Assembly (NCBI GenBank): GCA_964016885.1
Contig: OZ024742.1
Span: forward strand, 360,716,001-360,780,000
DNA from: Eledone cirrhosa
Lineage: Eukaryota
DNA length: 64,000 nucleotides
Direction: 5' to 3'
The translations under genes were made by a program, and so were the position numbers. Under the pieces are notes generated by a model. That model was not told the DNA's origin. It searched no databases and was given only the letters and a program-made list of their open reading frames with translations. This document shows, in pieces, positions 1-32,562 of the stretch; within the stretch, counting starts at the first letter, position 1; each line of letters starts with the position of its first letter.

Positions 1-1445
1 CTACACACCATCTCTGAGACCTCACCAATGCCATCATCTCTAACACCCCTCGCCCCACACACACCATCTCTGAGACCCCACCAATGCCATCATCTCTAAC
101 ACCCCTCCCCTCTACACACCATCTCTGAGACCTCACCAATGCCATCATCTCTAACACCCCTCGCCCCACACACACCATCTCTGAGACCCCACCAATGCCA
201 TCATCTGTAACACCTCTCCCCCCACACACCATCTCTGAGACCCCACCAATGCCATCATCTCTAACACCCCTCCCCCCACACACCCATCTCCATGCCCCCC
301 CCCACACCATCCCTGAGACCCCACCAATCCCATCATCTCTAACACCCCTCGCCCCACACACACCATCTCTGAGACCCCACCAATGCCAGCATCTCTACCC
401 CCCCCCAAACCATCTCTGAGACCCCACCAATGCCATCATCTCTAACCCCCCCCCACACCATCTCTAACACCCCCCACACCATCTCTGAGACCCCACCAAT
501 GCCATCATCTCTAACACCCCCACCCACACACCATCTCTGAGACCCCACCAATGCCATCATCTCTAACACTCCACCCCCCACACACACCACCTCTGAGACC
601 CCACCAATGCCAGCATCTCTAACACCCCCCGCCTCCACACACCATCTCTGAGACCCCACCAATGCCATCATCTCTAACACCCCTCCCCTCTACACACCAT
701 CTCTGAGACCTCACCAATGCCATCATCTCTAACACCCCTCGCCCCACACACACCATCTCTGAGACCCCACCAATGCCATCATCTCTAACACCCCTCCCCT
801 CTACACACCATCTCTGAGACCTCACCAATGCCATCATCTCTAACACCCCTCGCCCCACACACACCATCTCTGAGACCCCACCAATGCCATCATCTGTAAC
901 ACCTCTCCCCCCACACACCATCTCTGAGACCCCACCAATGCCATCATCTCTAACACCCCCCCCCCCATCTCCACCCCCCCCCCCCCCAACATCCCTGAGA
1001 CCCCACCAATCCCATCATCTCTAACACCCCTCGCCCCACACACACCATCTCTGAGACCCCACCAATGCCAGCATCTCTACCCCCCCCCCCAAACCATCTC
1101 TGAGACCCCACCAATGCCATCATCTCTAACCCCCCCCCCCCACACCATCTCTAACACCCCCCACACCATCTCTGAGACCCCACCAATGCCATCATCTCTA
1201 ACACCCCCACCCACACACCATCTCTGAGACCCCACCAATGCCATCATCTCTAACCCCCCCCCCCCACACCATCTCTAGCACCCCCCACACCATCTCTGAG
1301 ACCCCACCTATGCCATCATCTCTAACACCGCTCCCCCCACACAACATCTCTGATACCCCACCAATGCCATCATCTCTAACACCTCTTCCCCCACACACCA
1401 TCTCTGAGACCCCACCAACGCTATCATCACAAACCCCCCCCCCCC
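1..1445. repeat. C-rich minisatellite, ~52-57 bp unit, with ~689-bp higher-order duplication (begins before window)
   Basis: Core cacaccatctctgagaccccaccaatgccatcatctctaacaccc is repeated with variable C/CA linkers. Variant markers recur at +689 (ctacacacca at 1/690 and 112/801; catctgtaa at ~202/~891). Confidence 0.95.
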
Positions 1446-1577
1446 ACTCCTATGTTACTGCCATCCTAAATATATCCACCACTGAGCTTCTTTATAGACT
1501 TGTTTTCTTCATTGGACATCATCTGACAGACAACTCTTGTTTACTAGCTATCTCTCTCATATATATATAATATATAC

Positions 1578-2081
1578 AGAATAAAAAGAAAACACACCTC
1601 AGACTCACAAATGAAAACAACCCCTCCCCAAAACATGACACTAACACCAACACAAAAGAGCTCACAACAACAGCAAACAAAAAACACCAAACAAAAACAT
1701 GCATACACATACATAAACACAAGAAACAAAAAACTGTTAAACATTGTGTACAACAACAATCTAATAAAAACACAAGGGCCTAACTTCACCCAGGCAGGGG
1801 ATTTCCCCCACCTCAAAATGATTAAGGCCCCACAGGACACCTATAAAACTTTAAAAAACAATTTTAAAGAGGACGTGGGTCCCCCCTGCGTCGGGCCCAT
1901 TAACCGCGTCCTCCTAAAAAACTACCCCACCCCCTCCCCAAACACCCACACAACTCCAAGCTCCCCAACCACACAACACACTGATGCCCCTACACTTCCA
2001 CAAACCACCACCCCACCCAACAACCCATCCCCCACCCTAATGGAAATTGTGCAGCCCGATACCCGGGACGCTGAGAGGTAA
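1578..2081 (+). CDS. Probable C-terminal remnant of Tx1 ORF1 (low-complexity, K/T/P/Q-rich)
   Basis: The frame is open from the TA tract (RIKRKHTSDSQMKTTPP...) to TAA 2079-2081, 24 nt before the ORF2 ATG. This fits the two-ORF L1/Tx1 layout, but no recognisable domain is visible. Confidence 0.5.
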   Translation, partial: RIKRKHTSDSQMKTTPPQNMTLTPTQKSSQQQQTKNTKQKHAYTYINTRNKKLLNIVYNNNLIKTQGPNFTQAGDFPHLKMIKAPQDTYKTLKNNFKEDVGPPCVGPINRVLLKNYPTPSPNTHTTPSSPTTQHTDAPTLPQTTTPPNNPSPTLMEIVQPDTRDAER

Positions 2082-2105
2082 GTGCCTTTTCTCTTCACCA
2101 CCAAC

Positions 2106-2310
2106 ATGGCTATGCTAAGAGTAGGCTGTTTAAATGCGCGTGGCCTGGGCTCAACTTGGAAGCAAGCAATGCTTCTAAATGACCTCAGGTCACAACGTAT
2201 AGATGTGATGGTTATTTGCGAGGCCCGGATCAGCAACATGCGACAGCTGGCCCCCACCTTTGATGACTTTGAGATGCACGCATCTCTCTGTCAGCCTGGA
2301 GGTGGGGTGG
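2106..2310 (+). CDS. Tx1 ORF2 N-terminus (AP endonuclease start), separated from the main ORF by a 1-nt frameshift
   Basis: MAMLRVGCLNARGL...DVMVICE is the APE N-terminal motif. It joins GVVVLLQKHLGLATQMVHLDPEGR if one G is added in ggtggggtgga (2301-2311). Confidence 0.85.
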
Positions 2311-2353
2311 AGTTGTCGTTCTGCTGCAAAAACATCTGGGTCTCGCAACACAG

Positions 2354-5300
2354 ATGGTACATTTGGACCCGGAGGGTCGACTAGTGGTTCTGGACCTTGG
2401 CAGTGGTAAAGGCGGAGCGTTTAGGTTGGTAGCCGCCTACGGCCCTTTCGGGTCAATGCGGCCGGACTTCTTCCATCGTCTGGAGACTTTTCTAGGGACG
2501 TCCCGCTCCTTGCTATTAGTGGGGGACTGGAATGGTATCCTAGATGCACGCTGGGACTACGTAGGGGCCTGCCCCAATAGAGAGGGGTGTAATAGCCTCA
2601 AAGGGTTAATCGGGCGATTTGACCTGGCCGATAGATATCGACTAGATTTTCCGACTGCGCCAACCTGGACTTGGGAGAATCGTAGTGGATCATCTAGGTC
2701 GTACCTAGATAGGTTCTTAGTTAGAATTAAGGATAAGGACTTTTTAAGTTGTCCAAAAATGCGCATGGTTGGCTATTCAGACCACAAATTAGTGACCTGC
2801 ATGGTCAACCTTGACAGAACTCATAGACAGGGACCTGGTTACTGGAAGCTCAACTTGTCCTTACCGGCAAGTAAGGCTTACAGGAACCGGATTAGCACTT
2901 TAGTTAAGGAGCGGTTGACGGGCGCCATCGTCAACAGCAGGTGGTGGGGAGCTCTCAAAAGAGAGATTAGAGTAGTCTCTATAGAATTTAGTAAGGAGTT
3001 AGCCTCAAATAGAAATAGGAAGGACAGGGAGTTGGTAGATAGTGTAGAAGAGGCAATTAGAAGCGGCGACGTGGCCAGAGTGCTAGCGTCGAGAACGGCC
3101 CTGGGCCAGTTCTTCGACGCGAAGCACGAAGGCTGCATCGTCCGAAGCAAAATATGTGCTCTGGGAAACGAGGGGACCAAAGCTGTTAGCTGGGCCCGCG
3201 TGACAGAAGCCAAAAGAGGGAGCAGATCCACTATCCGGTCTTTGCGAGACCAGGATGGACGGGTGATCCTTGAACCTAAGCAGATGTGCAAGGCTTTTCA
3301 AAAGCACTTTGCTGGATTGTTCGGAAGGGGCGGGGGGCCGGTTGGGGACGTGGACTTCGGTCCATACCTCGACGGCCTGCCGCGTCTCTCGGACAGGGAG
3401 GCGAAGTCCTGCGAGGAGCCGATTTCAGCCGCTGAGATAGAGGACGTGCTGAGCCAATGCGGCAAACGCAAATCCCCGGGTCTCGATGGTCTTCCATACG
3501 AACTATATCTAGCTATGCCGGACTTGTTCCCCGAACTCCTCGAGGCGGTCTACTGCAACTGGCAACAGAACGGGAGAATTCCCTGTGCTGTGACCAAGGG
3601 CGTAGTCACGCTAGTGAGGAAGGACGAGAACAAGGGGGACGATATAAATAATTTGAGGCCCATAACTCTGCTAAATACAGAGTTACAGATTTTGGCCAAG
3701 GTGCTAGCAAAGAGGTTGGCGCTTGTCGTGGGCAACCTGGTGGGAGATGCGCAGACATGTGCTATCCCGTCCAGGTCCATCCACGATAACCTCCACCTCA
3801 TGCGATACATCATAGAGAGGGTTGGGAACGAACCCGGCTTTGGTGGGGCCCTGATCAACTTGGATCAATCTAAGGCATTCGATAGGGTCGACCATGGTTA
3901 CCTGGATGCGGTGCTAGCGGCGGCAGGCTTCGGACCCGTTTTCAGGGGCTGGATCAATGCCATGCACAGCAGCCGCATCTGCTCTAGGGTCAAGGTGAAC
4001 GGCTACCTCTCGGAACCGTTCGAAATCGCACGGTCCATCCGACAGGGGTGCCCTCTCTCCTCCCTTCTGTATGTAATGACTCTAGAGCCACTGCTGCGGA
4101 AGTTGGAGTTGTTGCAGGGCATCCCGTTGGAACCGGGATTGCGGAAAGCGATGTCAGCCTACGCCGATGACGTAACAGTAATGGTGTCGACGGCCTCGGA
4201 AATCAGGACGATCGGCACCTTACTGGAGGAGTACGAAAGGTTTACAGGGGCTAAGCTGAACCGGGACAAGTCGATCGGTCTGCAACTCGGCACATGGAGG
4301 GGCAGATCGATGCCCTCCGATGGCGTCGTCGGGCGCTGGACGGAGGGCCCGGTGAAGTTGCTCGGGGTCTGGTTCGGACCAGACCTCCAGGTGGAGAAGA
4401 ACTGGGGTGAGGTGACGAACAGGGTGTTTGCACTGACCCAGAAGTGGGCCGAGTGCAAACTGTCCCTGAAAGGACGGGCGGAGGTGGCGAACACTTATAT
4501 AGCGTCCGTCATCTACTACCGCCTGACCGTTGTGCCTTGCCCAAGGGAAACGCTCGCCAAAATGGAGCGCGCACTCTTCCAATTCCTTTGGAAGAAGCGG
4601 GCTCCTATGGTGAGGAGATCCATCTGCTGTCAACACCCTTCGAAAGGAGGGCTGGGGATGCCGTGGCTAATGATACGTAAACACGCATTAAGGCTACGGC
4701 ACCTTCAGGTATTCCTCTCCGGTCAACCGGTGTGGGCCCCGTTTGTGAGGCGAGCCTTTCCCAGACTCGTCTCACTCACCGAGCTGCAATCCTGGGTCAA
4801 GCAAAGACCAAGAAAACTGGGCGCCTGGCACACCGAGTGTGCCCAGGCACTCACAGCTCTCTGGCAGGTGGACCTGGCTGTCAGTGGAGAATCCACCTCG
4901 TCATTCTATAGAGGGCTGGTGGTTAGCAGGTGCGACGACGCCCTCGGAGAAGCCCTAGGCATGGAGGAAGACGAACTGGCCAACCTGTTCAGTAGGACAT
5001 TCAGCCCGGGACCCATGGATAACTTCCAGAGGTCCCTGGTCTGGCAATGCTACAGAAGGGCTCTGCCCGTTCGAGAAAGGCTCTACAGACACGGGCGCCC
5101 GGGTAGGGACCCATCGAAAAAGATCTGTCCCAGATGCGTGTGTGACGAGGAAACCGTTGCACACGCATTGGTACACTGCTCGGGCATTGCCGATCTGTGG
5201 GGTTATGTCGAACAACTGCTGTCAAGGGTGGGACCAATCTGGTTGACCACCGAGTCTATTGTAACGATCAAGCCGCCTCCCCTCTTCAAAAACGAAGGAG

Positions 5301-5542
5301 AGGCGGTGTTTCTGTGCATAATAGCCATGGCGAAAGAGGTTGTATGGTGGACGCGTCTGAAAGGACTGAGGTCAGACACCTTTCTCTCTGGCCAACAACT
5401 GGTCCGTTTCTTCCGATATCATTTCGGAAGAAGGATCAGGATGGAGAGAGAGGTGCTGCACCCCAGCCGTTTCTATGAAAGATGGGTGAAAGTGGCGAGA
5501 ATGGCCCGTGTGAATGGGCCTTCACTCTACATTAGACTATAG
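2354..5542 (+). CDS. Tx1/L1 ORF2 polyprotein: AP endonuclease + reverse transcriptase + C-terminal CCHC zinc knuckle
   Basis: APE motifs DPEGR, GDWN, SYLD, SDH. RT motifs KSPGLDGLPYE, RPITLLN, LDQSKAFDRVDH, QGCPLS, YADD. Also GGLG and CPRC-x8-H-x4-C. 1062 aa uninterrupted. Confidence 0.95.
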   Translation: MVHLDPEGRLVVLDLGSGKGGAFRLVAAYGPFGSMRPDFFHRLETFLGTSRSLLLVGDWNGILDARWDYVGACPNREGCNSLKGLIGRFDLADRYRLDFPTAPTWTWENRSGSSRSYLDRFLVRIKDKDFLSCPKMRMVGYSDHKLVTCMVNLDRTHRQGPGYWKLNLSLPASKAYRNRISTLVKERLTGAIVNSRWWGALKREIRVVSIEFSKELASNRNRKDRELVDSVEEAIRSGDVARVLASRTALGQFFDAKHEGCIVRSKICALGNEGTKAVSWARVTEAKRGSRSTIRSLRDQDGRVILEPKQMCKAFQKHFAGLFGRGGGPVGDVDFGPYLDGLPRLSDREAKSCEEPISAAEIEDVLSQCGKRKSPGLDGLPYELYLAMPDLFPELLEAVYCNWQQNGRIPCAVTKGVVTLVRKDENKGDDINNLRPITLLNTELQILAKVLAKRLALVVGNLVGDAQTCAIPSRSIHDNLHLMRYIIERVGNEPGFGGALINLDQSKAFDRVDHGYLDAVLAAAGFGPVFRGWINAMHSSRICSRVKVNGYLSEPFEIARSIRQGCPLSSLLYVMTLEPLLRKLELLQGIPLEPGLRKAMSAYADDVTVMVSTASEIRTIGTLLEEYERFTGAKLNRDKSIGLQLGTWRGRSMPSDGVVGRWTEGPVKLLGVWFGPDLQVEKNWGEVTNRVFALTQKWAECKLSLKGRAEVANTYIASVIYYRLTVVPCPRETLAKMERALFQFLWKKRAPMVRRSICCQHPSKGGLGMPWLMIRKHALRLRHLQVFLSGQPVWAPFVRRAFPRLVSLTELQSWVKQRPRKLGAWHTECAQALTALWQVDLAVSGESTSSFYRGLVVSRCDDALGEALGMEEDELANLFSRTFSPGPMDNFQRSLVWQCYRRALPVRERLYRHGRPGRDPSKKICPRCVCDEETVAHALVHCSGIADLWGYVEQLLSRVGPIWLTTESIVTIKPPPLFKNEGEAVFLCIIAMAKEVVWWTRLKGLRSDTFLSGQQLVRFFRYHFGRRIRMEREVLHPSRFYERWVKVARMARVNGPSLYIRL

Positions 5543-5803
5543 GTGAGGAAGATGAAAGACCAAGGGAGCACCCCTTCTCTGTGCTCCTGAGGAGAAGGGT
5601 TGCACACTTTTTTCGGGGGTGTGTGTGACCCCCCAAGGCGCCTCCTCTCTATTGAGGACTTTGTTATAAATTTTATTTTTTGTTATATTTTATTTTATTT
5701 TTATATATTGTTATTGCCTCCTCCTTATTGAGGACGCCTTGTTTTGTAAACTCCCCCATTGTACTTGTCCCACTTTTGATGCCCTGGTGGCAAATAAAAG
5801 AAA

Positions 5804-5830
5804 CATATATATATCATATATACATATGTG

Positions 5831-5861
<31 letters not shown>

Positions 5862-5896
5862 ATATATATATATATATGTGTGTGTGTGTATATATA

Positions 5897-5934
<38 letters not shown>

Positions 5935-6268
5935 TGTGTTAATGTGTGTATATATATGTGTGTGTGTATATATATATGTGTATATATATGTGTGTGTATA
6001 TATATGTGTGTGTATATATATATGTGTGTATATATATGTGTGTGTATATATATGTGTATATATGTGTGTATATATATATGTGTATATATATGTGTGTGTG
6101 TGTATATATATATATGTGTGTGTATATATATGTGTATATATGTGTATATATATGTGTATATGTATATGTGCGTGTATGTGTGTGTGTGTGTATATATATA
6201 TATATGTGTACGTATGTATGCATATGTGTGTGTGTGTGTGTATGTATGCGTGTGTGTGTGTATATATA
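5804..6268. repeat. Compound (TA)n/(TG)n microsatellite
   Basis: Alternating tatata/tgtgtg runs. Confidence 0.95.
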
Positions 6269-6291
6269 GCAACAATTGCCCAGCTCTAAAC

Positions 6292-6673
6292 ATGATGGTG
6301 GTGATGAAGGTGGTGAAGATGATGGTGATGATGGTGATAACAGTGGTAGTGATAATAGTGGTGGTGATAATAGTGGTAGTGATAATGGTGGTGGTGGTGA
6401 TAACAGTGGTAATGATAATGGTGGTGGTGATAATGGCAGTGGTGATGGTGGTGGTGGTGGTGATAACAGTGGTGGTGATAATGGTGGTGGTGGTGGTGAT
6501 AATGGCGGTGGTGGTGGTGGTGGTGATAACAGTGGTGGTGATAATGGTGGTGGTGATAATGGCGGTGGTGGTGATAAAAGTGGTGGTGGTGAGGACAGTG
6601 GTGGTGATAATGGTGGTGGTGGTGGTGATAACAATGGTGGTGGTGGTGATAATGGTGGTGGTGGTGGTGATAG
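6292..6673. repeat. (GGT)n/GAT-AAT trinucleotide-derived low-complexity repeat
   Basis: ggtggtgataat / gataacagtggt units. Confidence 0.9.
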
Positions 6674-7127
6674 TTGAGAAATATTTGTCTTGTGAATAAC
6701 ACTGCCAGATGAAATATATTTATGGATGCGTATATGCGTGTGTGTTTATCTATGTGCGTGTATGAATGAATGTGTGTACGTGTGTACACATGTATGTATG
6801 AATGTACGTGTGTATACATGTGTGTATGTATGAATGGATGTGTGTATGTCTCTGCAATACTATATATACATTCATATATATAGTGGCGTGATACTTCCGA
6901 AGAGAAAAATCTAGAAATATATGTATAAAAAGAACACACTTATACACACACATACACACACACAGCCTAACATAGCCATGTGTGAATGCAGATGTAAAAC
7001 TAAAGGCAGCCCAGCTTTGAAGCATGTTGATAACACGACTATGACTAATTGTTTAAGATGTTTTTGTTGAGTTTTTCAAGTAAACAAATTATTTTTGGTA
7101 TTGTTATTGAATTCTAAAACTGTGTCT

Positions 7128-7168
7128 GTAGTCATGGCTAAGTGGTTAAGAGGTTTTGATTTACAATC
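7128..7168 (+). mobile_element. 5' head (A-box) of a tRNA-derived SINE interrupted by the RTE element
   Basis: tggctaagtggttaagagg...ttacaatc. The B-box half resumes at ~10447. Confidence 0.6.
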
Positions 7169-10100
7169 GTAGAGATGCTAGAGTGAAAGGAAATTGATGT
7201 ATGCTGTGTGCAAGAGACTAGATGGAGAGGAGAGTCTGCTAGAGTCCTTGTAGGAAAAAGTCGATGCTACAAATTTTTCTGGGTGGGAAATGATGGGATG
7301 GGTGGTGTAGGTATACTACTAGCTGACAAGTGGGTAGATAAAGTAATCTCAGTGTACAGGGTAAATGCAAGAATCAATAAACTCAGACTAGTCCTGAATA
7401 AAACAATTACCACAATAATATCAGCTTACGCACCCCAATCGGGGTTGCCAGACGAACTTAAGGATAGATTTTACGAGACCCTAATGCACACTACTGCTCT
7501 AACAGACGACAATGACTTCCTAATCATCGCAGGAGATTTTAACGGACACGTAGGTAAACACTGTGACGGCTTCAATAGAGTCCATGGAGGCCATGGGGTT
7601 GGCACAAGAAATGAAGAAGGATTCAGACTTCTAGAATTCTGCGACGCCAATGACATGTCGATATGTAACACAAACTTCAAAAAACCGACAACCACCTGAT
7701 CACCTATAGATCAGGGGAGCATTCTAGTAAGATAAATTTTATCCTCATCAGAGGACGTGACAGAAGGACGGTCGTAAACACAAAAGCCATCCCTAGTGAG
7801 GAATGTACCTCCCAACATAGCTTAGTTGTCAGCGACCTCACAGTCAGAACTAGACGAACCTGGAAACAGAGGCCAACCTGGAGAAGAAAGATCTGGAAGC
7901 TGAAAGACCCCTCAGCCAGTAACAGATTTAAAGATATTTTAATCAACGCCTACGACAGTAAAGAAGAACCGATAGAGACATTCAATGTAGAAGAGCACTG
8001 GGAGTTCCTAAAAAAATAACTTACTAGAGGCGACAGATGAGGTCTGTGGCTGGAGTAAGACAACAAGCAGGAGGAGAGTGACTTGGTGGTGGAACAATAA
8101 GGTAGATGAGGCAGTTAAGGTTAAGAGACAGGCATGGAAAGAATGGAAGAACAGGGGGAGCAGGGTACATTACATAGAGACCAAGAGGGAAGCTAGGCGA
8201 CAAGTATACTTAGCTAGGAAGGAAGCAAAGGATAGAAAATTCAAGCATGTTTTGCAACGTGAGGACCAGAAACAGGCGGTGTTCAAGATTGCGAGGCAGT
8301 GTGTCAGAGAGAATTGTGATGTCATTGGAGAGAAGTGTATCCGGAATGATAAAGGTGAGCTTGCCCTCACAAGTGCTGAGAAGAAAAATGCATGGAAGAG
8401 TCATTATGATAGATTACTAAATGAGGAGAATGCATGGGAAGAAGAGACCCTACCCCAAGTAGACCCTATAGAGAGGCCAGCAGTACAAATCAGCAGCAGC
8501 GTAGTAAGTAAGGCAATCAAAGATATGAAGATGGGGAAGGCAACCGGTCTATCGGGTATAGCTGCTGAGATGCTGAAGGCATCTGGGTCTGTAGGTCACA
8601 CTATAACCACACGTATTGTTAACCAGGTAATACTAGAAGGTGTCATACCAAAAGATTGGTGCAGTAGCATCATTGTCAACTGCTACAAAGGTAAAGGTGA
8701 TGCATTCGATAGAGGAAACTATAGAGGTATAAAGCTGATGGACCAGGTCATGAAAGTAACAGAAAGAGTTATAGCACAGTTGATTAGGGACCGGGTGAAA
8801 CTAGATGAGATGCAATTTGGGTTTGTACCAGGAAGAGGCACCACTGATGCCCTCTTCCTTGTGAGGCAGTTACAGGAAAAGTACCTAGCTAAAAGTAAGC
8901 CACTCTACCTGGCATTCGTCGATCTCGAGAAAGCCTTTGACAGAGTTCCACGTGCTGTAATCTGGTGGGCTCTTAGAAAACTAGGAGTAGATGAATGGCT
9001 TGTGAAAGCTGTACAAGCCATGTATAGGGGAGCAGTCAGCAAAGTTAGGATTAGTAATGAGTATAGCGAGGAATTTAGCGTACAGGTTGGGGTCCACCAG
9101 GGCTCTGTTCTTAGCCCCCTCCTGTTCATCATAGTCCTGCAGGCAATAACGGAGGAGTTTAAGACCGGATGCCCATGGGAACTCCTGTATGCTGATGACC
9201 TCGCACTTATAGCTGAATCTATGGTAGAACTAGAGAAGAAATTCCAAACTTGGAAGCAGGGACTAGAAAGAAAGGGTCTCAAAGTCAACATGACAAAGAC
9301 TAAGGTCCTTTAAGTAGACGAGAAAACAGAACCCAGATCCCTCAGGGGAATGGCCTTGCTCAGTATGTAGGAAAGGTGTAGGTAGGAACTCCATTCTCTG
9401 CCCCAAATGTAAACAATGGGTACACAAGAGATGTAGCGGGATCTCAGGAAGCTTAATTAAGAATGTAGGCTTCACATGCAGCAGCTGTACTGGGACAGCA
9501 AGCAGCAAACAGCCACAGGAAACAAGTACCACCAATTTCTGGGAGGGCTCTGTAGACAGTAGACAGCTTCTGCTACCTAGGTGACCGAATTAGCAGCGGA
9601 GGTGGATGTTCAGAAAGTACAATAACTAGGGTAAGAACGGGATGGAAGAAGTTCAGGGAACTACTACCACTGCTAGCTGCAAAAGGCTTCTCCCTCAAAA
9701 GGAAAGGCAGACTGTATGATGCGTGTATCTGAACAGCAATGTTACATGGTAGTGAGACCTGGGCGCTGAAGGTGGAAGACTTACGTAGATTAGAGAGAAA
9801 CGAAGCCTGCATACTCTGATGGATGTGTAATAGTAATATACGTGAACGACAAAGCATAAATGAATTGAGAGAGAGACTGAACATAAGAGGAATCAAATGC
9901 TGTGTGCAGGAGAGGCAGTTGCGCTGGTATGGACATGTGATGCGTATGAAGGATGACAGCTGCATAAAAAGGTGCAGAGCACTAGAAGTTGATGGAAACT
10001 GCGGAGTGGGGAGACCCAAGATGACCTGGGATGAGGTGATAAAGGCCGACTTTACCCAGTTACACCTCTCAAAGGCGATGACACACGACCGTAACCACTG

Positions 10101-10450
10101 GCGTCACGCAGTAATACAGAGTACCCGACCTCCCATGAGTACAAGCTGAAGCATATAGACACTATGCCCCCACACCCTCCACTGCAAGGTGGTCGTGGAG
10201 GTGCCACGGCAAAAAAGCACCCAGCCCACACTGTAAAGTGGACGTGTAGGCGCCACGAAAAAGCACCCAGCACTCACTGTAAATGAGGTTGGTGTTAGGA
10301 AGGGCATCCAACTGTAGAAATCAAGCCAAATCAGTTCCTGTATGAGCAAGGCATGGTCAGCTGACCAGACACTGCCCACAACAGGACAACCCGTCTAACC
10401 CATGCTAGCGTGGAAGAACGGACGTAAAACGGTGATGATGATGATGATGA
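7166..10450 (+). mobile_element. RTE-clade LINE, near full-length, decayed
   Basis: APE (VQETRW, SAYAPQ, GDFNGHVG), RT, PHD-like finger and C-terminal RWYGHVMRM...GRPK..W, then a 3'UTR ending aacccatgctagcgtggaa...(GAT)n. Confidence 0.93.
7208..10149 (+). pseudogene. RTE ORF (APE-RT-PHD) broken by frameshifts and stops; largest piece 8078-9313 is the RT
   Basis: YRGIKL, QFGFVPGRGTTDA, FVDLEKAFDRVP, GVHQGSVLSPLLF, YADD. Frameshifts at about 7690, 8010, 9310 and 9550; TGA stops at about 9730 and 9817. Confidence 0.9.
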
Positions 10451-10532
10451 AACTTATGGGTTCAAGTCCACTAGAAGGAATCTTGTACAGGTTTCATTAC
10501 CATCAATCCCAAGTTAACCCAAGCCTTGTGAA
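10447..10532 (+). mobile_element. 3' continuation of the SINE split by RTE (B-box and body)
   Basis: atgggttcaagtccact...aacccaagccttgtgaat resembles the cephalopod SINE body. Confidence 0.55.
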
Positions 10533-10595
10533 TATGGCCTAGTGGTAAGGATGTTGGACTTATAACAATGTCTTTCAATCCAGTTGTCTTCACCA

Positions 10596-10742
10596 TCTAT
10601 CTATCTATCTATCCATCTATTCATCCATCTATCTGTCTCTCTATCTATCTATCTGACTATGCAAAATCCCTGGCATGTGTCTTTGTATTCTCCCCTTGTG
10701 CGCCCTTGTGGCAAATAAAGAAATCTATCTATCTATTCATCT
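10596..10742 (+). mobile_element. (TCTA)n tract containing a ~65-bp Tx1 3'-end remnant (10658-10723)
   Basis: gtctttgtattctccccttgtgcgcccttgtggcaaataaagaa matches the 3' end at 11095-11141 and resembles 5760-5803. tctatcta lies on both sides. Confidence 0.75.
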
Positions 10743-11141
10743 ACCTTTCTCTCCGGACAACAACTCATTCCCTTCTTTAGGTACCACTTTAGAAGGAGAA
10801 TCTGAGTCGAGAGAGAGGCACTGCACCCCAGTAAATTTACTGAAAGGTGGGTGAATGTGGCGAGAATGGCCCGAGGGATTGGGCTTTCTTTGTATATAAA
10901 CCTGTAGGTTGAAGAAGAGAGCGAAAAGAGGAAAAGAGCACTTGCACAGCATGCTTCTGGAGTTGAGAGTTGTTCTCTCTACAGGGTATAAAGCAACCCG
11001 TTTGTAATGCCTCCCCCCTATTGGGGATTTCGATTGCTATATTTTTTTGTTAAAACTTTTTTTATATGACTGTATGTAAAATCCCCGCCATATGTCTTTG
11101 TATTGTCCCCTTTTCTTGTGCGCCCTTGTGGCAAATAAAGA
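10743..11141 (+). mobile_element. 5'-truncated Tx1 copy (related subfamily): ORF2 C-terminus + 3'UTR
   Basis: Translates as TFLSGQQLIPFFRYHFRRRI*VEREALHPSKFTERWVNVARMAR..LYINL*, homologous to the ORF2 end at 5378-5542. Followed by (TCTA)n. Confidence 0.88.
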
Positions 11142-11239
11142 TATCTATCTATCTATTTATCTTACAATCATTCTATTACACTATTGCATCAACTTCACAC
11201 TAAGCTGTAGATACTATTTACAAGTTGTAGGCCAATAAG

Positions 11240-19550: not shown

Positions 19551-19867
19551 TCTAGCTGGAGTGTGAGTAGAGGAATACAACTCTAGCTGGAGTGTGAGTA
19601 GAGGAATACAACTCTAGCTGGAGCATGAGTAGAGGAATACAACTCTGGCTGGAGTGTGAGTAGAGGAATACAACTCTGGCTGGAGTGTGAGTAGAGGAAT
19701 ACAACTCTGGCTGGAGTGTGAGTAGAGGAATACAACTCTGGCTGGAGTGTGAGTAGAGGAATACAACTCTGGCTGGAGTGTGAGTAGAGGAATACAACTC
19801 TGGCTGGAGTGTGAGTAGAGGAATACAATTCTGGCTGGAGTGTGAGTAGAGGAATACAACTCTGGCT
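19551..19867. repeat. 31-bp minisatellite, ~10 near-perfect copies
   Basis: tctggctggagtgtgagtagaggaatacaac tandem. Confidence 0.95.
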
Positions 19868-21578: not shown

Positions 21579-21802
21579 TTTCACCACCATCATCATCATC
21601 TTTGTTTTTTTTTTCCCACGCTCGCATGGGTTGGATGGGTTTTTTTCAGTGATGTCCATACAAAATGTTTTGGTAATAATGAAACCCTTGGTATTTGAAA
21701 CAAAGAAGGCACAAATTACTCTAATCATGTGAAGCATGTAATATATATGTCAATAATCTAAACATAACAATGATGTAGCTTTTAGTATACTAATATTATA
21801 GA

Positions 21803-21995
21803 ATAATGGTTTCTGATTTAGGCACAAGGCCAAGAATTTTGGAGGAGGGGAAAGTCGATTAAATTGACCTCAGCACATAACTGGTACTTTATTTTATAAA
21901 CCCCCGTAAGGATGAAAGCAAAAGCTAGCCATGGCGGGATTTGAACTCAAAACATAAAGGGACGTAACTATTTGCAGGATATTCGATGATTTACC
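21803..21995 (-). mobile_element. Cephalopod-type tRNA SINE
   Basis: ggcacaaggcc...gtcgatt...ctggtactttattttat...aggatgaaag...gcgggatttgaactc. Confidence 0.75.
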
Positions 21996-22035
21996 GATAC
22001 TGTAGATAATAATAATAATAATAATAATGATGATT

Positions 22036-22160
22036 TCATTTATTGGCCACAGGGGCTGACATGTAGGGGACAATACAAAGACCCAGACAGTGGAGGTTTA
22101 CAAGATTGAGTAAAAATGCACAATAGCAAAACCAATTTAACAATGAAAAAAAAAAAAAAT
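22036..22160 (-). mobile_element. Tx1-like 3'UTR remnant followed by (ATC/ATT)n
   Basis: Minus strand reads gtctttgtattgtcccct...cccctgtggccaataaatgaa, matching the Tx1 3' ends at 11095-11141. Confidence 0.65.
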
Positions 22161-22262
22161 AATTGTTTCTACTTTTGGCACAAGGCCAGCAATTATCCAG
22201 TGCATTACTGGTACTTTATTTTATCGACCCCGTAAGGATGAAAGGCAAAGTTAACCTCGGAA
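22160..22262 (-). mobile_element. SINE 3' half
   Basis: ggcacaaggccagcaatt...ctggtactttattttatcgaccccgtaaggatgaaaggcaaagttaacctcgg. Confidence 0.75.
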
Positions 22263-22277
22263 TAAAAAAAATAATGT

Positions 22278-22594
22278 GACCAAAAAATAGATACAAATAG
22301 ACCTGATATAATACCAAAGGACTTTAAACAGAGGGTATCCCTGCTAATTGATATGACTGTTTCTATAAACAAGTATGCATCTATAAAAACATTTGAAAAA
22401 TTGAGCAAATATAAAGACCTGGAAAAATGAGGAAGATTGGAAAAATGAGGAAGTTGAGAGCTAAAACAATACCAGTGGTTGTAGGTGCTCTAGGAATTAT
22501 ACCTAAGGGGTCTAATGATTACTTATCCCAGGAAACCCGCATATAGAAGAAATTGGGAACTGCCCATATACTAAGGAAGATTTTGTCAATATAA
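22278..22594 (+). mobile_element. R4/Dong-clade non-LTR 3' fragment (restriction-like endonuclease domain)
   Basis: NRPDII.KD......LLIDMTV......K.FEKLSKYKDLE...TIPVVVGALG...GTAHILRKILSI* is a PD-(D/E)xK RLE signature. The fragment is frameshifted. Confidence 0.8.
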
Positions 22595-23248: not shown

Positions 23249-24062
23249 TCTGTCACAACACAACACTAGGTATATCTCACATCTGTCACAACACTAGGTA
23301 TGTCTCACATTTGTCACAACACTAGGTATGTCTCACATCTCTGTCACAACACTAGGTATGTCTCACATTTGTCACAACACTAGGTATGTCTCACATCTCT
23401 GTCACAACACTAGGTATATCTCACATCTGTCACAACACTAGGTATGTATCACATTTGTCACAACACTTGGTATGTCTCACATCTGTCACAACACTAGGTA
23501 TGTCTCACATCTCTGTCACAACACTAGGTATGTCTCACATCTCTGTCACAACACTAGGTATGTCTCACATTTGTCACAACACTAGGTATGTCTCACATCT
23601 GTCACAACACTTGGTATGTCTCACATTTCTGTCACAACACTAGGTATGTCTCACATCTCTGTCACAACACTAGGTATGTCTCACATCTCTGTCACAACAC
23701 TAGGTATGTCTCACATCTGTCACAACACTAGGTATATCTCACATCTGTCACAACACTAGGTATGTCTCACATCTGTCACAACACTTGGTATGTCTCACAT
23801 CTCTGTCACAACACTAGGTATGTCTCACATCTGTCACAACACTAGGTATATCTCACATCTGTCACAACACTAGGTATGTCTCACATCTGTCACAACACTA
23901 GGTATGTCTCACATCTCTGTCACAACACTAGGTATGTCTCACATCTCTGTCACAACACTAGGTATGTCTCACATCTGTCACAACACTAGGTATGTCTCAC
24001 ATCTGTCACAACACTAGGTATGTCTCACATCTGTCACAACACTAGATGTGTCTCACATCTCT
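23249..24062. repeat. 28/30-bp minisatellite, ~28 copies
   Basis: gtcacaacactaggtatgtctcacatct(ct) tandem. Confidence 0.95.
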
Positions 24063-24609: not shown

Positions 24610-25060
24610 GGTTTCTATAGCAACCACCATACAGAGTGTACTGGGTGCATTTTATCATGAGACCAGCGTTACCACCATACAGAGTGTACTGGGTGCAATT
24701 TATCATGAAACCAGCACTACCACCCTACAGAGTGTACTGGGTGCAATTTATCATGACACCACTACCACCATACAGAGTGTACTGGGTGCATTTTATCGTG
24801 GTACCACCACTACCACTTTACAGAGTGTACTGGGTGCAAGTTATAGCACCAGCACTACCACCATACAGAGTGTACTGGGTGCAATTTATTATAGCACCAG
24901 TATTACAGTATTACATTACAGAGTGTACTAGGTACATTTTATAATAGCACCAGCACTATCACTTTACAGAGTGTATTGGGTGCAATTTACCATAACACCA
25001 GCATTATCATTTCACAGAGTGTACTGGGTACATTTTATCATGGTTCCATCACTACCGCTT
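24610..25060 (-). repeat. ~45-48-bp minisatellite derived from the RTE 3'UTR repeat, ~9 copies
   Basis: Minus strand reads ...aaaatgcacccagtacactctgtatggtggt..., homologous to aaagcacccagcccacactgtaaagtgg in the RTE UTR. Confidence 0.8.
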
Positions 25061-26974: not shown

Positions 26975-27883
26975 TATAGTGAAGAATTTAGCGTGCATAT
27001 TGGTGTCCATCAGGGCTCTGTTTTTACCCTTCTTCTGTTTGTTATCATTCTGCCAGCAATAACGGAGGAGTTTAAGACCAGCTTCCCATGGGAACTTCTG
27101 TATGCTGATGGCCTAACCCTTATAGCCGAATCTATAGCTGAACTAGAGATGAAATTCCAAACCTAGAATCTAAAGGTTTTAAAGTCAACCTGGCAAAGAC
27201 TAAAGTCCTAGTAAGTAGAAAGGATAACAGGGCCCAGATATCCTCTGGGAAATGGCCCTGGTCAGTGTGCAGAAAAGGAGTAGGTAGAAATTCCATTTTA
27301 TGTACCAAATGCAAGCAATTGGTGCACAAGAGATGTAGTAGGATCTCAGACAGGCTAACAAAGAATGTAGGTTTTACTTGTGGCCAGTGCACAGGTGCAG
27401 TAAGTAACAAGAACCCTCAGGATACAACCACCTTCAAATGTTCAGAGGGCTCAGTTGAAGTGGTAGATAGTTTCCGTTACCTGGGTGACCAAATCAGTAG
27501 TGGGAGGAGGGTATTCTGAAAGCACAGTAACCAGAGTGAGATTGGGTTGGAGAAAGTTCAGGGAGCTACTACCGTTACTAACTACAAAAGGTTTTTCTCT
27601 CAAAATAAAAGGCAACTGTATGATGCATGTATACCAACAACAATGTTGCACAGCAGTGAGACCTGGGCACTGTGTGCTGAGGACCTGCGGAGATTGTAAA
27701 GAAATGAAGCCTCCATGCTTTGATGGATGTGCAATAGTAATATACGCGAACGGCAAAGTATAAATATACTGCGTCACAAATTAGGTTTAAGAGGGAACAG
27801 TTGTTGCATGCAGAAGAGATTGTGTTGGTATGGACATGTGATGTGTATGAAGGATAACAGCTGTATAATAAGGTGTAGAGCAC
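26975..27883 (+). pseudogene. RTE fragment (RT end, PHD-like finger, C-terminal domain), fused to the satellite
   Basis: GVHQGSV..LLF, PWELLYADG, CRKGVGRNSILCTKC..VHKRC..FTCGQC, FRYLGDQI, WYGHVM. Colinear with 9062-9983. Confidence 0.9.
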
Positions 27884-30800
27884 CCAGTCCACACAGTAAA
27901 GTGGTCATGTAGGTGTCACAACAAAAAGCACCCAATCCACGCTGTAAAGTTGTCATGTAGATGTCACAACAAAAGTGTCCAGTCCACACTGTAAAGTGAT
28001 CATGTAGGTGTCACAACAAAAAGCACCCAGCCCACACAGTAAAGTGGCCAATAAGGTGTCACAACAAAAAGCACCCAGTCCACACAGTAAAGTGGTCATG
28101 TAGGTGTCACAAAAAAAAAGCACCCAATCCATGCTATGAATTGTCATGTAGATGTCACAACAAAAGTGTCCAGTCCACACTGTAAAGTGCTCATGTAGGT
28201 GTCACAACAAAAATCACACAGTCCACACAGTAAAGTGGTCATGTAGGTGTCACAACAAAAAGCACCCAGCCCACACAGTAAAGTGGCCATGTAGGTGTCA
28301 CAACAAAAAGCACCCAGTCCACACAGTAAAGTGGTCATGTAGGTGTCACAAAAAAAAGCACCCAATCCACGCTGTAAATTGTCATGTAGATGTCACAACA
28401 AATGTGTCCAGTCTACACTGTAAAGAGGTCATGTAGGAGTCACAACAAAAGTGCCCAGTCCACACAGTAAAGTGGTCATGTAGGTGTCACAACAAAAAGC
28501 ACCCAGTCCACACAGTAAAGTGGTCATGTAGGTGTCACAAAAAAAAAGCACCCAATCCATGCTATGAATTGTCATGTAGATGTCACAACAAAAGTGTCCA
28601 GTCCACACTGTAAAGTGGTCATGTAGGTGTCACAACAAAAATCACACAGTCCACACAGTAAAGTGGTCATGTAGGTGTCACAACAAAAAGCACCCAATCC
28701 ACGCTGTAAAGTTGTCATGTAGATGTCACAACAAAAGTGTGCAGTCCACACTGTAAAGTGATCATGTAGGTGTCACAACAAAAAGCACCCAGCCCACACA
28801 GTAAAGTGGCCAATAAGGTGTCACAACAAAAAGCACCCAGTCCACACAGTAAAGTGGTCATGTAGGTGTCACAAAAAAAAAGCACCCAATCCATGCTATG
28901 AATTGTCATGTAGATGTCACAACAAAAGTGTCCAGTCCACACTGTAAAGTGCTCATGTAGGTGTCACAACAAAAATCACACAGTCCACACAGTAAAGTGG
29001 TCATGTAGGTGTCACAACAAAAAGCACCCAGCCCACACAGTAAAGTGGCCATGTAGGTGTCACAACAAAAAGCACCCAGTCCACACAGTAAAGTGGTCAT
29101 GTAGGTGTCACAAAAAAAAGCACCCAATCCACGCTGTAAATTGTCATGTAGATGTCACAACAAATGTGTCCAGTCTACACTGTAAAGAGGTCATGTAGGA
29201 GTCACAACAAAAGTGCCCAGTCCACACAGTAAAGTGGTCATGTAGGTGTCACAACAAAAAGCACCCAGTCCACACAGTAAAGTGGTCATGTAGGTGTCAC
29301 AAAAAAAAGCACCCAATCCACGCTGTAAATTGTCATGTAGATGTCACAACAAATGTGTCCAGTCTACACTGTAAAGAGGTCATGTAGGAGTCACAACAAA
29401 AGTGCCCAGTCCACACAGTAAAGTGGTCATGTAGGTGTCACAACAAAAAGAACCCAGTACACACTCTAAAGTGGTCATGTAGGTGTCACAACAAAAAGTG
29501 CCCAGTCCAAACAGTAAAGTGGTCATGTAGGTGTCACAACAAAAAGCACCCAGTACTCACTGTGAAGAGGTCATGAAGGTGTCACAACAAAAGTGCCCAG
29601 TACACACTGTAAAGTGGTCATGTAGGTGTCATGACAAAAGTGCCCAGTCCACACTGTAAAGTGGTCATGTAGGTGTCACGACAAAAGTGCTCAGTACAGA
29701 CTGTAAAGTGGTCATGTAGGTGTCGCAACAAAAGTTCCCAGTCACCACAGTAAAGTGGTCATGTAGGTGTCACAATAAAATGTGCCCGACCACACAGTAA
29801 AATGGTCATGTAGGTGTCACAACAAAAACCACCCAGTCCACACAGTAAAGTGGTCATGTAGGTGTCACAACAAAAAGCACCCAGTCCACACAGTAAAGTG
29901 GTCATGTAGGTGTCACAACAAAAAGCACCCAGTCCACACAGTAAAGTGGCCAATAAGGTGTCACAACAAAAAGCACCCAGTCCACACAGTAAAGTGGTCA
30001 TGTAGGTGTCACCACAAAAAGCACCCAGTACACTGTAAGGTGGTCATGTAGGTGTCACAACAAAAAGTGCCCAGTCCACACAGTAAAGTGGTCATGTGGG
30101 TGTCACAACAAAAAGCACCCAGTACTCACTGTAAAGTGGCCATGTATGTGACAACAGAAAGTACCCAGTCCATACTGGAAAGTGGTCATGTAGGTGTCAC
30201 ATCAACCCCTCCCCCGTCCACACTGTAAAGTGGTCATGTAGGTGTCACAACAAAAGCCCCCAGTCCACGCTGTAAAGAGGTTATGTAGGTGACACAACAA
30301 AAGTGCCCAGTACACACTGTAAAGAGGTCATGTAGGTGTCACAACCAAAGTGCCCAGTCCACACTGTAAATAGGTCATGTAGGTGTCAACAAAAGTGCCC
30401 AGTCCACACAGTAAACAGGTCATGTAGGTGTCACAACAAAAGTGCCCAGTACACACTGTAAAGAGGTCATGTAGGTGTCACAACAAAAGTGCCCAGTCCA
30501 CACAGTAAAGAGGTCATGTAGGTGTCACAACAAAAGTGCCCAGTACACACTGTAAAGAGGTCATGATGTAGTTGTCACAACAAAAGTGCCCAGTCCACAC
30601 AGTAAAGAGGTCATGTAGGTGTCACAACAAAAGTGCGCAGTACACACTGTAAAGAGGTCATGTAGGTGTCACAACAAAAGTGCCCAGTACACTGTAAAGA
30701 GGTCATGTAGGTGTCACAAAAGTGCCCAGTCCACACAGTAAAGAGGTCATGTAGGTGTCACAACAAAAGTGCCTAGTACACACTAAAGAGTTCATGTAGT

Positions 30801-32233
30801 TGTCACAACAAAAGCACCCAGTCCACACAGTAAAGAGGTCATGTAGGTGTCACAACAAAAGTGCCCAGTACACACTGTAAAGAGGTCATGTAGGTGTCAC
30901 AACAAAAGTGCGCAGTACACTGTAAAGGGGTCATGTAGGTGTCACAACAAAAGTGCCCAGTACACACTGTAAAGAGGTCATGTAGGTGTCACAACAAAAG
31001 TGCCCAGTACACACAGTAAAGAGGTCATGTAGGTGTCACAACAAAAGTGCCCAGTCCACACTGTAAAGAGGTCATGTAGGTGTCACAACAAAAGTGCCCA
31101 GTACACACAGTAATGAGATCATGTACGTGTCACAACAAAAGTGCCCAGTCCACACTGTAAAGAGGTCATGTAGGTGTCACAACAAAAGTGCCCAGTACAC
31201 TGTAAAGAGGTCATGTAGGTGTCACAACAAAAGTGCCCAGTACACACTGTAAAGAGGTCATGTAGGTGTCACAACAAAAGTGCCCAGTACACTGTAAAGA
31301 GGTCATGTAGGTGTCACGACAAAAGTGCCCAGTACACTGTAAAGAGGTCATGTAGGTGTCACAACAAAAGTGCCCAGTACACACTATAAAGAGGTCATGT
31401 AGGTGTCACAAAAGTGCCCAGTCCACACTGTAAAGAGGTCATGTAGGTGTCACAACAAAAGTGCCCAGTACACACAGTAAAGAGGTCATGTAGGTGTCAC
31501 AACAAAAGTGCCCAGTACACACTGTAAAGAGGTCATGTAGGTGTCACAACAAAAGTGCCCAGTACACACAGTAAAGAGGTCATGTAGGTGTTACAACAAA
31601 AGTGCCCAGTACACACTGTAAAGAGGTCATGTAGGTGTCACAACAAAAGTGCCCAGTACACACAGTAAAGAGGTCATGTAGGTGTCACAACAGAAGTGCC
31701 CAGTACATACTGTAAAGAGGTCATGTAGGTGTCACAACAAAAGTGCCCAGTACACACAGTAAAGAGATCATGTAGGTGTCACAACAAGAGTGCCCAGTAC
31801 ACACATTAAAGAGGTCATGTAGGTGTCACAACAAAAGTGCCCAGTCCACACTGTAAAGAGGTCATGTAGGTGTCACAACAAAAGTGCCCAGTACACACAG
31901 TAAAGCGGTCATGTAGGTGTCACAACAAAAGTGCCCAGTACACACTGTAAAGAGGTCATGTAGTTGTCACAACAAAAGTGCCCAGTCCACACTGTAAAGA
32001 GGTCATGTAGGTGTCACAACAAAAGTACCCAGTCCACACTGTAAAGAGGTCATGTAGGTGTCACAACAAAAGTGCCCAGTCCACACTGTAAAGAGGTCAT
32101 GTAGTTGTCACAACAAAAGTGCCCAGTCCACACTGTAAAGAGGTCATGTAGGTGTCACAACAAAAGTACCCAGTCCACACTGTAAAGAGGTCATGTAGGT
32201 GTCACAACAAAAGTACCCAGTCCACACTGTAAT
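27879..32233 (+). repeat. 47/48-bp satellite array (~90 units) derived from the RTE 3'UTR, with a 762-bp HOR
   Basis: gtgtcacaacaaaaagcacccagtccacacagtaaagtggtcatgtag grades into gtgtcacaacaaaagtgcccagtacacactgtaaagaggtcatgtag. Identical ORFs at 28144/28906 are 762 bp apart. Confidence 0.95.
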
Positions 32234-32562
32234 GTGTTCATAACCACTTTACAACATCAACCGGCTGGTTTTGCGTCATATCAAAGAAATGAAACACTTT
32301 TAGTCCTGTAGAAGCCATTTCTATATTAAACTTGATGTTTACACTCTCCTAATGTATTGAGTACCTAACTGTGTTGTACACCCGAACCTGGGACTCACAC
32401 ACATTTCTATACATATGTGTGTATATATAACTTAAAGAACTGCTATGAAGTTCCTCATTGGTTGTTATATAATATGGGAGTTTGTGCCAAAGAATGTTGA
32501 ACAAGAAAGAGGTGTTAGTCTCAAATTTCACTAGTTTTCTTGTTTTCTTTACTGATGGCAAT

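Follow-up and report, generated by a model that had tools for sequence, protein, structure and literature searches.

We analysed a 64,000-nt stretch of the Eledone cirrhosa genome (contig OZ024742.1 of assembly GCA_964016885.1, positions 360,716,001 to 360,780,000, forward strand), referred to as the window. It holds copies of three related families of long interspersed nuclear elements (LINEs), designated A, B and C, each in or beside simple repeats. Together with a fourth relative, family D, they were followed through the genome (3.0 Gb searched), taking in each search the best 40 copies by score, and we ask here how such LINEs come to lie in TATC and ATT repeats.

Copies of families A, B and C in the window

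The longest copy belongs to family A and spans 1578-5803 on the plus strand, with 98-99% identity to many genomic copies. It begins in the 3' portion of open reading frame (ORF) 1, which ends in a low-complexity tail (1578-2081). ORF2 (2106-5542), with one frameshift near 2300, codes for an APE endonuclease, a reverse transcriptase (RT) and zf-RVT. An alternative reading of 1578-2081, as the terminal 3' part of an element on the minus strand, was ruled out as the region is ORF1. Family A sequence continues upstream past 1578 in 29 of 29 other copies; the window copy is therefore truncated, within ORF1. At full length the element is about 5.7 kb with two ORFs, ORF1 having about 595 aa and a single CCHC knuckle. 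Two alternative 5' ends occur on the same family A body, one in loci L095, L102, L104 and L105 and the other in L092 and L093. The best 40 of 2405 candidates for a 3'-end query were all 99-100% identical and the best 40 of 1703 for a 5'-part query all at least 98% identical, and by these identities family A is a young LINE family.

TA-rich runs flank the long copy on both sides. The target-site duplication, of TA type, lies at 1558-1578 and 5804-5824 (21 nt, one mismatch); beyond the 3' copy, (TA/TG)n continues as far as about 6267. Of these 21 nt the opening CAT also forms the 3' end of family A itself at 29 of 30 loci, which leaves a true duplication of about 18 nt. The 3' terminus shared among the families (5781-5803) has a small GC-stem hairpin in the predicted fold and then AATAAA, and the copies lack poly(A).

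Two family B copies stand head to tail on the plus strand. Upstream of them is a (TATC)n tract (10595-10657), then a 66-nt remnant (10658-10723; 89% to the best other B copies, 86% to its neighbour) and a (TATC)n spacer (10723-10742). The spacer is the 5' duplication of the second copy (10743-11141; the end of ORF2 and the 3' untranslated region (UTR), about 90-92% to other copies), matching the (TATC)n at 11143-11162 over 20 nt with one mismatch. With about 90% identity among its copies, family B is older than family A. Many B copies (L034, L044, L045, L046, L049, L053, L054 and L058) are fused to parts from further upstream in the element, as an internal deletion would leave them.

Family C is represented on the minus strand by a 3' UTR remnant of an ATT-targeting lineage (22033-22162), 85% identical to a young C family and 88-90% to other C copies. 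Beyond its end lies (ATC/ATT)n (22006-22035). A short interspersed nuclear element (SINE) of 219 nt flanks the remnant on both sides, also on the minus strand: its 3' part with an ATT-type tail is directly 5' (22160-22262) and a 5'-truncated copy of the same family directly 3' (21800-22004). Several C copies elsewhere (L335, L346, L347, L348, L350 and L088) have a common sequence after the ATT run, likely because the (AAT)n tail of an opposite-strand repeat served as target.

A sequence-only reading of the window had described most of this arrangement. The long copy between TA repeats, the two B relatives within (TATC)n and the shared 3' terminus were all borne out. It had given the duplication at 1558 and 5804 as 11 nt, which is present but longer, and had placed the end of the minus-strand remnant in (ATC/ATT)n at a SINE tail; the repeat is there, but the SINE tail is on the 5' side and the ATT end adjoins the truncated head of the second SINE.

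The families include intact members. Unbroken ORF2 in young copies has 1144 aa in A, 1150 aa in D and 1140-1143 aa in C. ORF2 identity is 84% for A and D, 69% for A and C, and 70% for C and D. The young C family gave 150 endonuclease matches of 89-100% identity, and the best 40 family D matches were 100% identical over 167 nt.

Simple repeats at the insertion junctions

To score each copy we took the last 20 nt before the 5' junction, counting 8 letters of a TATC, GATA or TA repeat or 7 letters of an ATT or AAT repeat. Background was 67,864 sampled windows from 17 fixed 10-kb stretches on both strands (170 kb), with rates of 0.24% for TATC, 10.1% for TA and 0.98% for ATT. In family A, TATC was found at 24 of 38 junctions, GATA at none and TA at five, the last not enriched over background (p 0.33). 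These 38 are from the best 40 3'-end matches, the other two having been moved to the full-length set. A second family A set (30 loci, less 7 duplicates and 7 without the junction in view) gave TATC in 6/16 and TA in 1/16. Among full-length starts, with the start motif located in 25 of 39 loci, 23 followed TATC and one followed TA.

The other families gave similar results with their own repeats. Family D had TATC at 18 of 20 junctions and TA at one (10 of 30 were out of view, and two pairs are neighbours within one array). Family B had TATC 5' of 14/29 copies, with no ATT, and 3' of 26/30. For old C copies, ATT was 5' of 8/24, or 11 given an 8-nt extension, TATC was 5' of none, and ATT was 3' of 22/30; six of 30 were out of view. 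Young C copies had ATT in 16 of 20 by script and AAT in one, or 19 of 20 by eye. An RTE family with a copy in the same window served as control and had TATC in 0/16, TA in 3/16 and ATT in 2/16, with 13 of 29 out of view. Kojima's criterion calls a family microsatellite-specific when more than 20% of its flanks carry one repeat; A (24/38), B (14/29), D and both C sets exceed this figure.

True pairs of 5' and 3' flanks had a duplication score of 16.9 versus 10.9 +- 1.1 for permuted pairs, and 0 of 2000 permutations scored as high. Duplications are about 10-21 nt long, and several (L010, L024, L025, L252) include unique letters. The repeats are found 5' of truncated copies and within duplications, with one strand used almost without exception. 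The TATC and ATT repeats are therefore pre-existing targets and not only element tails. Repeats confined to the 3' side, which the sequence-only reading had named as the pattern that would speak against targeting, were not what we found. Three A and D copies (L009, L125 and L400) are inserted, as judged from their 3' flanks, at the TATCTATA-like start of another repeat, which we take to be of Helitron type.

The SINE is associated with family C in the same places. Its tail is directly 5' of 8/24 C copies, compared with 0/38 in A and 0/29 in B, and 17/30 C, 0/38 A and 1/30 B copies are followed within 60 nt by the start of a SINE on the same strand. ATTAT was 5' of 17/29 SINE copies versus 5% of background. 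The tail hairpin of the SINE, in a predicted fold compared by eye, shares its small loop with the LINE hairpins and has their stem in reverse. The SINE likely uses the enzymes of family C. We take it to be MetaSINE, with a presumably tRNA-like head. The partners of MetaSINE are said to be unknown in passages of a previous study (PMC4824008).

Recognition of the target

We consider it probable that these related L1-group LINEs, likely of the Tx1 clade, sit in TATC and ATT repeats because their APE endonuclease nicks them. The endonuclease would cut the repeat on one strand, followed by target-primed reverse transcription. The nick may fall in the bottom strand, at a T-A step or adjacent to one (5'-AGAT^AG in family A, 5'-TAAT^A in family C), and the three to four letters common to the element end and the target would help to prime. 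TA runs would be a tolerated near-match, struck occasionally since they are about 20 times commoner. Every insertion would leave target at both sides, potentially seeding arrays. In 25 of 69 A copies a relative starts within 130 nt downstream, on the same strand in all 25; microsatellite targeting would account for such head-to-tail stacks of LINEs and SINEs in these repeats.

The bases upstream of the duplications bear on how the target is read. Ten duplications were informative: all have T at the first upstream position and nine have C at the second, where the element end has A. Further cases had C, C and A in A copies and C in two D copies; family B is left out of the count. Outside a tandem context C was found in 5/7 by eye (p 0.003, post hoc). 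As this C is beyond the primer, it suggests a constraint fitting readout by the protein. In passages on Tx1L, the endonuclease is reported to make specific nicks at its target in vitro (PMC1950540).

A number of observations weigh against this explanation. The strict 5' repeat is missing in 10/38 A copies, in 9/16 of the second set and in about half of B; part of these misses can be put down to degenerate repeats, to rearrangements within the copy or to probable loss of target by deletion, though not all are accounted for. The counts rest on the 40 best-scoring matches per search and a background of 170 kb, and few duplications inform on the upstream C. Four contig sets aligned to 1445-5830 showed no empty site and barely covered the flanks. 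From the TATC to the ATT families the target-reading hairpin loop changes at just one or two positions (NRSG[TS]SRS in the TATC families A, B and D; NR[MI]GSSRS in family C), and set against the RT the endonuclease shows no unusual divergence (endonuclease and RT identities of 79 and 87% for A and D, 60 and 78% for A and C). The APE domains of divergent specificity suggested in the sequence-only reading are a possibility. The last letters of every family agree with the target of that family; AATAAA stands shortly before them, and poly(A) is absent.

It is possible, though unlikely in our view, that the endonuclease is loose, cutting at any AT^A step, and that the 3' end of the RNA selects the repeat. 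AATAAA lies 7 nt ahead of the element end, so cleavage of the transcript would fall in the flanking repeat, and the few units thus carried would pair with the nicked strand. The nearly identical loops in both target classes, the absence of a poly(A) tail from every copy and the element ends (...CAT then ATCT in A, ...ATC then ATT in C) are consistent with this, as is the SINE, which combines a C-like tail with the C target. However, copies with unique duplications add nothing past the target-derived letters, and the C two places upstream falls outside the primer. Nor was 3' transduction found in 44 flanks that do not begin with a relative; the lone shared pair (L009 and L125) is only 81% alike over 268 nt and was read as another repeat. 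TA-flanked copies are also not clustered on the tree, which is weak evidence. An equally tentative extension is that these sister LINEs switched between TATC and ATT mainly through the letters of the RNA 3' end and not the endonuclease, the very abundant SINE exploiting the ATT lineage through a copy of its tail hairpin. If true, this would be an L1-group integration system tuned by RNA and open to re-targeting, one genome containing young intact copies of each specificity.

Returning to targeting by the endonuclease, we asked whether TA is a third target. The sequence-only reading had proposed families targeting (TA)n as well as the other repeats; enrichment 5' of the copies held for TATC and ATT, and TA was at background. 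A scheme of three lineages with a target each, including a lineage specific to (TA)n, is very improbable, even with TA on both sides of the window copy and at least three further A copies. After the family A end, ATCT was found in 34 of 38 copies and ATAT in four, whereas background had 580 TATCT and 13002 TATAT (TATAT 22 times commoner), an odds ratio of 190 for ATCT over ATAT. The TA-flanked copies are 99% identical to TATC-flanked copies. On a tree built from the last 1.2 kb, the 4 TA-flanked among 46 A copies are scattered and need 4 changes, the same as shuffled labels; the tree is star-like and poorly resolved, and one origin is not strictly excluded. With TA at background level, ATCT favoured and the TA copies scattered, we rejected a (TA)n-specific family: the long copy is a member of the TATC family inserted into a TA near-match. 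There are two target classes, TATC (A, B, D) and ATT (C), not three.

That there is no targeting at all, the repeats being element-made tails or the copies surviving only in repeat-rich DNA, is barely credible, since despite a repeat-rich genome with TA in 10% of windows and the TA at some RTE copies, the repeats lie 5' of truncated copies, on a single strand, are family-specific and fall within duplications with unique letters, and the near-identical young family D shows its repeat in 18 of 20.

Neighbouring elements and relation to known LINEs

Much of the window is occupied by other repeats. The RTE-type LINE copy at 7187-10450 (+) has APE and RT with several stops and frameshifts, ends in (TGA)n and is 96-97% identical to 39 other copies. 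A 47-bp tandem array of about 93 copies (27883-32241) has a unit matching the RTE 3' UTR near 10210-10250 (87-89% over 28-31 nt), possibly a satellite born from the LINE tail. A 15-bp satellite of about 2080 copies (32759-63999) makes up half of the window. No family match was obtained for the broken reading frame at 22281-22594 (+), presumably the C-terminal restriction-like endonuclease of a Dong/R4 element. Minisatellites are found at 1-1447 (period about 56 bp), 6292-6669 (about 15-63), 19551-19867 (about 31), 23259-24062 (about 28) and 24623-25056 (about 48).

ORF2 matched RVT_1, Exo_endo_phos and zf-RVT in Pfam, and the nearest solved structure was human L1 ORF2p (E of 4e-44 for A and 6e-57 for C, versus about 1e-18 for R2). 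The families have the L1-group features of APE and RT with a C-terminal zinc motif, 5' truncation and target-site duplications. A search with the family A endonuclease alone found no solved relative, and its single-sequence fold prediction (predicted local distance difference test, pLDDT, of 33) was not used. The ORF1 of Tx1-clade elements has an RNA-binding domain and a CCHC knuckle, unlike that of vertebrate L1. Family A ORF1 has a single CX2CX4HX4C, with zf-CCHC below cut-off and CCHC clusters at 0.91-0.92, and CCHC occurs in other clades too. No CCHC knuckle was found in the young C copy L334. The element tree held only unnamed relatives, of at most 38% identity with one at 69%. Membership of the Tx1 clade is plausible.

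In their behaviour families A to D work like Kibi and Koshi. Dong, Waldo and Mino, from other clades (R4 and R1), are also LINEs that target microsatellites. The SINE here differs from crocodilian SINEU in its presumably tRNA-like head and LINE-like tail hairpin. According to passages of the crocodilian study (PMC4494074), SINEU and Tx1-Mar share a target preference; the SINE and family C do so here. The same passages give TC, TTC, TTCC and TTTC repeats as targets of Kibi, Koshi and the crocodilian Tx1 group (PMC4494074). Kibi (TC)n, Koshi (TTC)n and the crocodilian (TTCC)n/(TTTC)n group are, like the families here, APE-type L1/Tx1-group LINEs favouring one microsatellite, as far as the portions of two sources go (PMC4494074, PMC3812793). 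Kibi and Koshi are from teleosts and the present families from E. cirrhosa. None of the pyrimidine-only repeats was found as a target here; TATC and ATT carry A on both strands. Dong targets (TAA)n, Waldo (ACAY)n and Mino (AC)n in the excerpted review (PMC3812793). The Dong repeat is also that of family C, which reads ATT on the sense strand where Dong reads TAA. Xenopus Tx1L, a model for specificity set by the endonuclease, also has an APE-RT ORF2 and a target duplication, whereas it targets a DNA transposon and the families here simple repeats; with eleven residues its hairpin loop is longer than that of human L1, to which the loop here aligns gap-free (PMC1950540, in part).

The part of the review covered lists Waldo, Mino, Kibi, Koshi and Dong, a list from which a TATC target is absent, and notes that it is not well understood by what mechanism APE-type LINEs target microsatellites (PMC3812793). 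A repeat annotation of O. vulgaris reports 13 recently active L1-Tx1 families, and the word "target" is not used in the sections covered (PMC13282606). By title, we found no prior report of TATC or ATT targets in the literature; this search did not extend to Repbase, to Kojima and Fujiwara 2004 or to supplements, where such families may be recorded. In the literature searched the TATC and ATT targets are new, microsatellite targeting as a class being already known. What is added is a pair of new targets together with a test system: families that are close relatives, differ in target and have young copies with unbroken ORF2 in one genome are a natural pair for swaps of domains and tails.

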